From: a phage
Sequence record: MZ956761.1
Reading direction: 5' to 3' (one strand)
Length of the DNA: 64,000 nt
Shown here: positions 39,708-40,404 of the stretch, in pieces
Position numbering within the stretch: position 1 is the stretch's first letter
Layout of the letters: every line of letters begins with the position of its first letter
The notes under the pieces: model-generated
Told to the model about the DNA's origin: nothing
The model's input: the letters and a program-made list of their open reading frames with translations, nothing else
Database searches by the model: none
Program-made: the position numbers and the translations under genes

Positions 39708-39949
39708 TGTCTGAACAAACTATTGAACAAAAACTGTCTGCTGAAATCGTAACTCTGAAGTCTCGTATCCTTGATACGCAGGACCAGGCGGCTCGTCTGA
39801 TGGAAGAATCCAAAATTCTGCAAGGAACTTTGGCTGAAATTGCTCGCGCAGTAGGTATCACTGGCGATACTATCAAAGTTGAAGAAATTGTTGAAGCTGT
39901 CAAGAATCTTACTGCTGAATCTGCTGATGAAGCAAAAGATGAAGAATAA
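39707..39949 (+). CDS. 57A: gp57A tail-fiber assembly chaperone
   Basis: 80 aa, helical and acidic; between genes 1 and 57B. Confidence 0.8.
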
Positions 39950-40404
39950 TGGAATTTAAAGACTTTTCAACGGGTCTTTATGTAGCAGCTAAGTTTTCAG
40001 AATTAACACTTGATGCGCTGGAAGAACTTCAGCGCTCTTTACGTGTTCCTAATCCAGTTCCTAGAGAAAAAATTCATTCGACCATATGTTATTCGAGAGT
40101 AAATGTTCCATATGTTCCATCGAGTGGAAGTTTTGAAGTAGCTTCTTCTGGACATTTAGAAGTATGGAAAACACAAGACGGATCGACTCTTGTACTTGTG
40201 CTAGATTCTGAATATCTGCGCTGTCGACACATGTATGCGCGGGCACTAGGTGCTACACATGATTTTGATGATTACACACCGCATATAACATTGTCTTATA
40301 ATGTTGGGCCCTTATCATTTAGCGGTGATGTACAAATTCCGGTTGTATTAGATCGTGAATACAAAGAACCTCTTAAACTCGATTGGGCAGACGATTTAAA
40401 ATAA
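39949..40404 (+). CDS. 57B: gp57B, 2H-phosphoesterase fold (Acb1-type anti-CBASS nuclease)
   Basis: 151 aa with two HxT motifs (IHSTI, PHITL); T4 57B is the described Acb1. Confidence 0.7.

Follow-up and report, generated by a model that had tools for sequence, protein, structure and literature searches.

Gene 57B of a Tequatrovirus as the anti-CBASS phosphodiesterase Acb1, at the edge of a variable internal-protein locus

Does the small protein encoded directly downstream of the tail-fibre chaperone gene 57A degrade the cyclic nucleotides of CBASS, is it an RNA ligase as its family is often labelled, and does it belong to a block of anti-defence genes? The question arises from a 64,000-nt stretch of phage DNA (record MZ956761.1, hereafter the window), in which an intact open reading frame occupies positions 39949-40404 on the + strand, with an ATG start, 151 codons and a TAA stop included in these coordinates. 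The earlier note, written from the letters alone, had taken the product for T4 gp57B, a 2H phosphoesterase of the Acb1 type, and had placed it in a contiguous block of likely anti-defence functions. The reading of the gene stands, and 39949-40404 is almost certainly acb1 (T4 gene 57B), coding for a small phosphodiesterase of the 2H fold which needs no metal and acts against CBASS. The gene itself is already known and offers nothing new, as it is a wild-type copy of a characterised T4 gene; the value of the finding lies in correct annotation, namely that of an intact wild-type Acb1 in a Tequatrovirus (phage ADUt or a near-identical genome).

The reading had started from two motifs, IHSTI and PHITL, and translation of the open reading frame places both at exactly the residues claimed. 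The first catalytic motif, I-H43-S-T45-I, spans residues 42-46 (nt 40072-40086, + strand; H44/T46 in T4 numbering), and the second, P-H112-I-T114-L, spans residues 111-115 (nt 40279-40293, + strand; H113/T115 in T4). The protein has five histidines, of which H43 and H112 alone stand in an H-x-S/T context, and the two motifs are its sole hydrophobic-flanked H-x-T/S sites, in agreement with the signature of the 2H superfamily. By itself, such a pair is weak evidence for 2H identity. In 200,000 shuffles of the protein, at least two H-x-[ST] sites appeared in 16.6% of the sequences, at least two H-x-T sites in 2.2% and at least two hydrophobic-flanked sites in 0.25%, and the first two of these shares favour a chance pairing of motifs in an unrelated small phage protein. 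The probability of such a coincidence is nevertheless practically nil, as it is excluded by full-length identity with T4 Acb1, by the Pfam family PF23474, by the match to the Acb1 structure 7T26 (E = 4e-62) and by the invariance of both motifs among 11 homologues. It is because of this homology that the case for Acb1 goes far beyond chance, the motif pair alone being weak.

The window protein is identical to T4 gp57B/Acb1 (NP_049750.1; Nature 605:522, PMC9117128) at 151 of 151 residues, and the six differences between the two genes at the DNA level are all synonymous. Pfam PF23474 (Acb1) matches with 202.7 bits against a cut-off of 27 (E = 2.6e-60), residues 8-149 covering model positions 1-144 of 144, that is, the full model. 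The top sequence match in the PDB is Acb1 of Erwinia phage FBB1 (7T26, apo; 7T27, complex with 3'3'-cGAMP), with 68% identity over residues 8-148 and one single-residue gap. The alignment check proposed in the earlier note came out in favour of the assignment: H43, T45, H112 and T114 align with H44, T46, H113 and T115 of T4 and with their FBB1 counterparts, where HST is paired with HTT and PHITL is the same in both. Identity with T4 also brings the base-stacking residues Y11, W73, F106 and W146 (Y12, W74, F107 and W147 in T4), the adenine-reading E140 (T4 E141) and the C-terminal lid LDWADDLK (residues 144-151, nt 40378..40401, + strand; T4 145-152), which has the same sequence in T4 and contains W146. 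FBB1, a different phage of a different host, differs at about a third of residues and has a tyrosine aligned with T4 F107, whereas the HxT/HxT tetrad, a tyrosine, a tryptophan and the lid tryptophan are common to its Acb1 and the window protein. An AlphaFold2 model computed from the single window sequence was uninformative (mean pLDDT 37.9, pTM 0.30), and the 2H fold is therefore inferred from the 68% identity to 7T26. NCBIfam holds no model for Acb1, nor for either of the internal proteins encoded downstream. About 500 phage records, that of T6 among them, contain the same protein with an identity of at least 99%, homologues are found in 1,471 records, and the record of Escherichia phage ADUt (OQ466432, Tequatrovirus) labels this CDS "anti-CBASS protein Acb1".

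Residue conservation was assessed in an alignment of the window protein, T4, FBB1 and eight further homologues, seven from other Straboviridae genera and one from Salicola phage SCTP-2. The catalytic H43, T45, H112 and T114 are invariant in all 11 sequences, at identities of 27-100%, and the complete set of invariant columns comprises H43, T45, S49, V82, R93, G101, Y109, P111, H112, T114 and E137. Against homologues of 80-86% identity, substitutions fall at third codon positions in 72 of 110, 87 of 143 and 78 of 118 cases, a pattern which indicates purifying selection in the + frame of acb1. Minus-strand open reading frames within the gene (up to 61 aa) were considered and rejected, given that homologues do not preserve them and that the substitutions fit the codon pattern of the + frame. 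The third-position bias and the loss of the minus-strand frames thus identify the + strand reading frame as the functional unit. Sequence identity, family membership, residue conservation and synteny together form the established basis for acb1.

Residue numbers in the window are one lower than those published for T4, because the first of two tandem start codons is absent: the 57A/57B junction reads ATGATG in T4, annotated as 152 aa from the first ATG, versus ATAATG at window positions 39946-39951. The other homologues examined also have the second ATG only, with the exception of Bas37 and Muldoon. Since the first ATG is missing from the window and from most homologues examined, the second is probably the conserved start of acb1.

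For activity, structural mechanism and phenotype, the account relies on published work with T4 Acb1, which has the same sequence. T4 57B was identified through activity-guided fractionation as a 3'3'-cGAMP-degrading enzyme (Hobbs et al. 2022, PMC9117128), and lysates of T4 delta-acb1 are without cGAMP-degrading activity. The enzyme also cleaves cUA and cAAA, and it does not cleave cGG, 3'2'-cGAMP or cA4 (PMC9117128). Structures of FBB1 Acb1 revealed a 2H phosphoesterase fold with a C-terminal lid (145-152) which closes on the ligand; base stacking is provided by Y12, W74, F107 and W147, E141 contacts adenine N6, and the HxT/HxT tetrad catalyses cleavage in two steps, without a metal, by way of a cyclic phosphate intermediate to GpAp, the H44A/H113A mutant being inactive (PMC9117128). 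Acb1 blocks activation of Cap4, Cap5 and CapV, and T4 delta-acb1 is impaired more than 300-fold on CBASS hosts and grows normally without CBASS (PMC9117128). Moreover, insertions in 57B/acb1 were depleted from a T4 transposon library under a CBASS-expressing host (preprint 10.1101/2025.11.20.689424).

By analogy with T4, the window protein would bind cyclic di- and trinucleotides made by CBASS CD-NTases and containing at least one AMP, such as 3'3'-cGAMP, cUA, cAAA and related signals, with Y11, W73, F106 and W146 stacking on the bases, E140 reading adenine N6 and lid residues 144-151 closing over the ligand. The H43/T45/H112/T114 tetrad would then provide acid-base catalysis, the adenosine 2'-OH attacking the 3'-5' bond to give a 2',3'-cyclic phosphate and finally a linear 3'-phosphate such as GpAp. 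CBASS effectors (Cap4, Cap5, CapV and others) would stay inactive because Acb1 destroys the cyclic-nucleotide signal, and abortive infection would be avoided. Phage ADUt presumably uses acb1 in the same way as T4.

The main competing reading holds that the protein is a LigT-like 2'-5' RNA ligase or an RNA 2',3'-cyclic phosphodiesterase whose substrates are RNA ends, with the repair of tRNAs as one conceivable function. It draws on names, fold and neighbourhood: PHROG 755 is described as 'RNA ligase', RefSeq gives the same name to T4 57B (NC_000866), one homologue is recorded as 'putative RNA 2',3'-cyclic phosphodiesterase', Acb1 and LigT have the 2H fold in common, and an array of 11 tRNA genes lies about 1.7 kb from acb1. 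The kinship is indeed genuine at the level of the superfamily, in that cellular and viral 2H phosphoesterases (LigT, 2'-5'-oligoadenylate phosphodiesterases, and the cGAMP phosphodiesterases of avian poxviruses and iridoviruses) share with Acb1 both the two H-x-T/S motifs and metal-independent transesterification via a 2',3'-cyclic phosphate. However, the substrates of the LigT-type and 2'-5'-oligoadenylate enzymes are RNA ends or 2'-5' oligoadenylates, not 3'-5' cyclic oligonucleotides, and Pfam 2_5_RNA_ligase2 (PF13563) reaches just 13 bits on the window protein (cut-off 27, E = 0.11, residues 80-122 only) against the 202.7 bits of Acb1. The identical T4 protein is a cGAMP-degrading enzyme whose activity disappears from delta-acb1 lysates (PMC9117128), and the literature examined on Acb1 reports no RNA ligase activity for T4 57B. 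The sub-cut-off match and the cGAMP degradation by the T4 protein lead to rejection of the ligase identity, which we consider extremely unlikely; the label is a misannotation propagated from LigT-type members of the 2H superfamily. Annotation derived from RefSeq and PHROGs widely applies it to the Acb1 family, and the common use of 'RNA ligase' should be flagged as misleading.

With Acb1 as the preferred identity, it may still be asked whether CBASS is its main natural target. In a panel of viral 2H phosphodiesterases, Acb1 was among the most promiscuous enzymes, and its structural group was broadly active, including on type III CRISPR messengers and 2'3'-c-di-AMP (preprint 10.1101/2025.08.21.671373); furthermore, acb1 is found, and kept, across very diverse T4-like phages and hosts. 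Both observations favour a main target other than CBASS. Against it, the phenotypes demonstrated in vivo are directed at CBASS operons (PMC9117128; preprint 10.1101/2025.11.20.689424), cA4 is spared (PMC9117128), and wider targets, e.g. type III CRISPR systems signalling through cA3, extend the Acb1 explanation and do not replace it. A main target elsewhere is thus unlikely. A second, non-immune role of the 2H enzyme late in infection, on RNA 2',3'-cyclic-phosphate ends or on an endogenous cyclic nucleotide, would explain a conservation of acb1 far beyond that of typical anti-defence genes; synteny is the one line of support that would point to it, while the normal growth of T4 delta-acb1 without CBASS (PMC9117128) speaks against it, and such a role is judged very unlikely.

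The promiscuity of Acb1 carries a cost for the phage. Panoptes guard systems sense Acb1 activity, and phages escaping them carry acb1 mutations predicted to be inactivating (PMC13577387; preprint 10.1101/2025.08.21.671373). Deletion of the lid from T4 Acb1 abolishes Panoptes activation, from which the authors of the preprint conclude that the lid is needed for catalysis (10.1101/2025.08.21.671373). The broad specificity of the enzyme, which extends to cA3 and 2'3'-c-di-AMP, makes phages carrying Acb1 detectable by Panoptes. A comparison is offered by 2H PDE-9 (9Q2G/9Q2Y, deposited as 'Anti-CBASS protein Acb1'), which is matched by the profile of the 11 homologues with E = 8e-14 and by the single window sequence with E = 0.004. 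It has the same core with two HxT motifs and degrades 3'3'-cGAMP, but its lid is N-terminal, as opposed to C-terminal in T4 and window Acb1, and it largely spares 2'3'-c-di-AMP (preprint 10.1101/2025.08.21.671373); therefore it does not trigger Panoptes, in contrast to T4 Acb1. For the phage represented by the window, these properties predict resistance to CBASS signalling with AMP-containing 3'-5' cyclic di- and trinucleotides, sensitivity to systems based on cGG or 3'2'-cGAMP, and vulnerability to guard systems of the Panoptes type. Such predictions may be useful in choosing therapy phages against defended hosts.

A more distant occurrence of the domain was observed in the portal protein gp3 of cyanophage Pam3 (PDB 8HDS, chain A), where residues ~494-614 match the profile of Acb1 homologues with E = 1.6e-8. 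This C-terminal part of the portal keeps both motifs, as LHVTIAYS and SHISLS, which suggests, from sequence similarity, that the Pam3 portal carries a fused Acb1-like 2H domain. In the paper on the Pam3 structure (PMC9942802), a term search turned up no reference to a phosphoesterase.

Upstream of acb1, gene 57A (39707..39949, + strand) encodes the 80-aa tail-fibre chaperone (PHROG 1002, E = 6e-28), and the last base of its TAA stop is also the first of the acb1 ATG (TAATG). An overlap of this kind, TAATG or TGATG, is present in all four relatives of 80-100% identity that were examined, and in Serratia phage Muldoon a GTG start of acb1 overlaps a TGA stop. The recurrence of the overlap in relatives suggests that 57A and acb1 are translationally coupled. 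All Straboviridae loci fetched, which come from phages of Acinetobacter, Aeromonas, Vibrio, Klebsiella, Cronobacter and Edwardsiella, have 57B next to 57A and retain the block 3-1-57A-57B. Muldoon shows both features as well, and Salicola SCTP-2 shows neither. The region downstream is variable among the loci fetched. The order in the window is 2 - 3 - 1 (dNMP kinase) - 57A - acb1 - IP - IP - trna.4 - trna.3 - trna.2 - 11 tRNAs, IP denoting internal-protein genes, and it corresponds to that of T4, where 3-1-57A-57B is followed by the internal-protein locus, trna.4/.3/.2 and the tRNA cluster.

As for transcription, the T4 late-promoter consensus TATAAATA occurs inside gene 1 (39344..39351, + strand), about 360 nt upstream of 57A, and T4 has this site too, within the same flanking sequence. 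The site, a candidate late promoter of 57A-acb1, is consistent with the predominantly middle/late expression of T4 57B (preprint) and with the appearance of Acb1 activity about 15 min after T4 infection (PMC9117128). MotA-box-like matches, TGCTT...TATAAT and TGCTT...TAAATT, lie upstream of and inside gene 1 (38943-38970 and 39447-39472, + strand); together with the late consensus, they could account for middle/late expression of 57A-acb1. A scan for generic sigma-70 promoters gave 16 matches versus 15.4 expected from shuffles, and of these only the TTTACA-N17-TACTAT sites are regarded as meaningful, because they are repeated and match the published consensus of PeSL elements. No intrinsic terminator was found downstream of acb1. 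In the resulting model, acb1 would be expressed in the middle/late period, probably coupled to 57A, and would border the variable cassette that encodes injected internal proteins, at least one of them an anti-restriction factor.

PeSL (promoter-early stem-loop) cassettes have been reported to mediate the shuffling of modules in T4-like phages (PMC4122927). Three such repeats of roughly 41 nt, each with a hairpin of 12-13 bp over the -10 box, bracket each internal-protein gene and the trna.4 homologue in the window, and all three fit the PST/T4 consensus TTTACW-N17-TAYWAT. The first (40417..40457, + strand; TTTACA-N17-TACTAT, 13-bp stem-loop, z = -3.7) begins 13 nt past the acb1 stop and separates the conserved block 3-1-57A-57B from the variable internal-protein locus. 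The second (40747..40787, + strand; z = -5.0) has the same TTTACA-N17-TACTAT arrangement with a stem-loop, and the third (41047..41087, + strand; TTTACT-N17-TACTAT with a stem-loop, z = -3.1) lies upstream of the trna.4 homologue.

The locus so delimited holds two unrelated internal-protein genes in place of the single ipI found downstream of 57B in T4. The first (40477..40734, + strand), which corresponds to IpV of phage PST, encodes 85 aa (PHROG 3499, E = 8e-50), is 99% identical to bas37_0261 and has the N-terminal capsid-targeting sequence MKTFKEF...ITE. The second (40813..41046, + strand), IpVI in PST, encodes 77 aa (PHROG 8111, E = 2e-51) and agrees with Bas37_0260 of phage KarlGJung at 76 of 77 residues, the exception being D22 in the window versus G22 in KarlGJung. 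Both are small, carry an MKT(F/Y)(K/Q)EF... N-terminus, occupy the ipI locus as in T4, PST and Bas37, and belong to PHROG families of internal head and virion proteins; their similarity to T4 IPI is limited to the N-terminus in the alignment. Bas37_0260 has been reported as a new inhibitor of McrBC type IV restriction (HIDEN-SEQ, preprint 10.1101/2025.11.20.689424), and its orthologue in the window is likely an McrBC inhibitor as well. In most GenBank records, the second protein is still called hypothetical or internal protein.

These results bear on the second part of the earlier note. That acb1 lies directly upstream of the variable internal-protein locus is borne out by a gap of 72 nt to the first of the two genes. 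The contiguous anti-defence block gains support from the second internal protein, because this is 99% identical to Bas37_0260 with its reported action against McrBC; the first is so far a candidate injected anti-defence protein. The idea of the block is thus supported, and in outline it was already published, the adjacency of Acb1 and ipI in T4 having been pointed out as an anti-defence cluster by Hobbs et al. (PMC9117128).

In the two stretches that were compared, 38.9-42.1 kb and 58-64 kb, the window and ADUt (OQ466432) are 100% identical. The offset between the two coordinate systems is 116,794 at 38.9 kb, and it wraps past the end of the record with a 99-base shift by 58 kb. As the offset runs past the end of OQ466432, the window spans the arbitrary ends of that linear record, at ~50,000-50,110; the shift would correspond either to a 99-nt terminal duplication collapsed in the window or to a small indel.

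The tRNA cluster (42089-43110, + strand) comprises 11 genes, for Gln, Leu, Gly, Pro, Ser, Thr, a 'Met' with CAU anticodon, Tyr, Asn, His and Arg, against eight in T4, and the segB homing-endonuclease gene is absent from between the window tRNAs. The CAU tRNA stands at the place where T4 annotates tRNA-Ile, and tRNA-Arg is followed by an open reading frame of 116 aa (43127-43477), in the position occupied in T4 by the small RNAs rnaD and rnaC. Rfam models returned the 11 tRNAs and nothing else over 38-46 kb. For window positions 1-35,906, the ADUt annotation comprises structural and replication genes only, and labels none of them vs.4/acb2, the other anti-CBASS gene of T4. According to the same annotation, a homing endonuclease gene is located at window 13759-14409 on the - strand (ADUt 130553-131203), between gene 19 (tail tube) and gene 18 (tail sheath), which makes it a mobile-element insertion among the structural genes.
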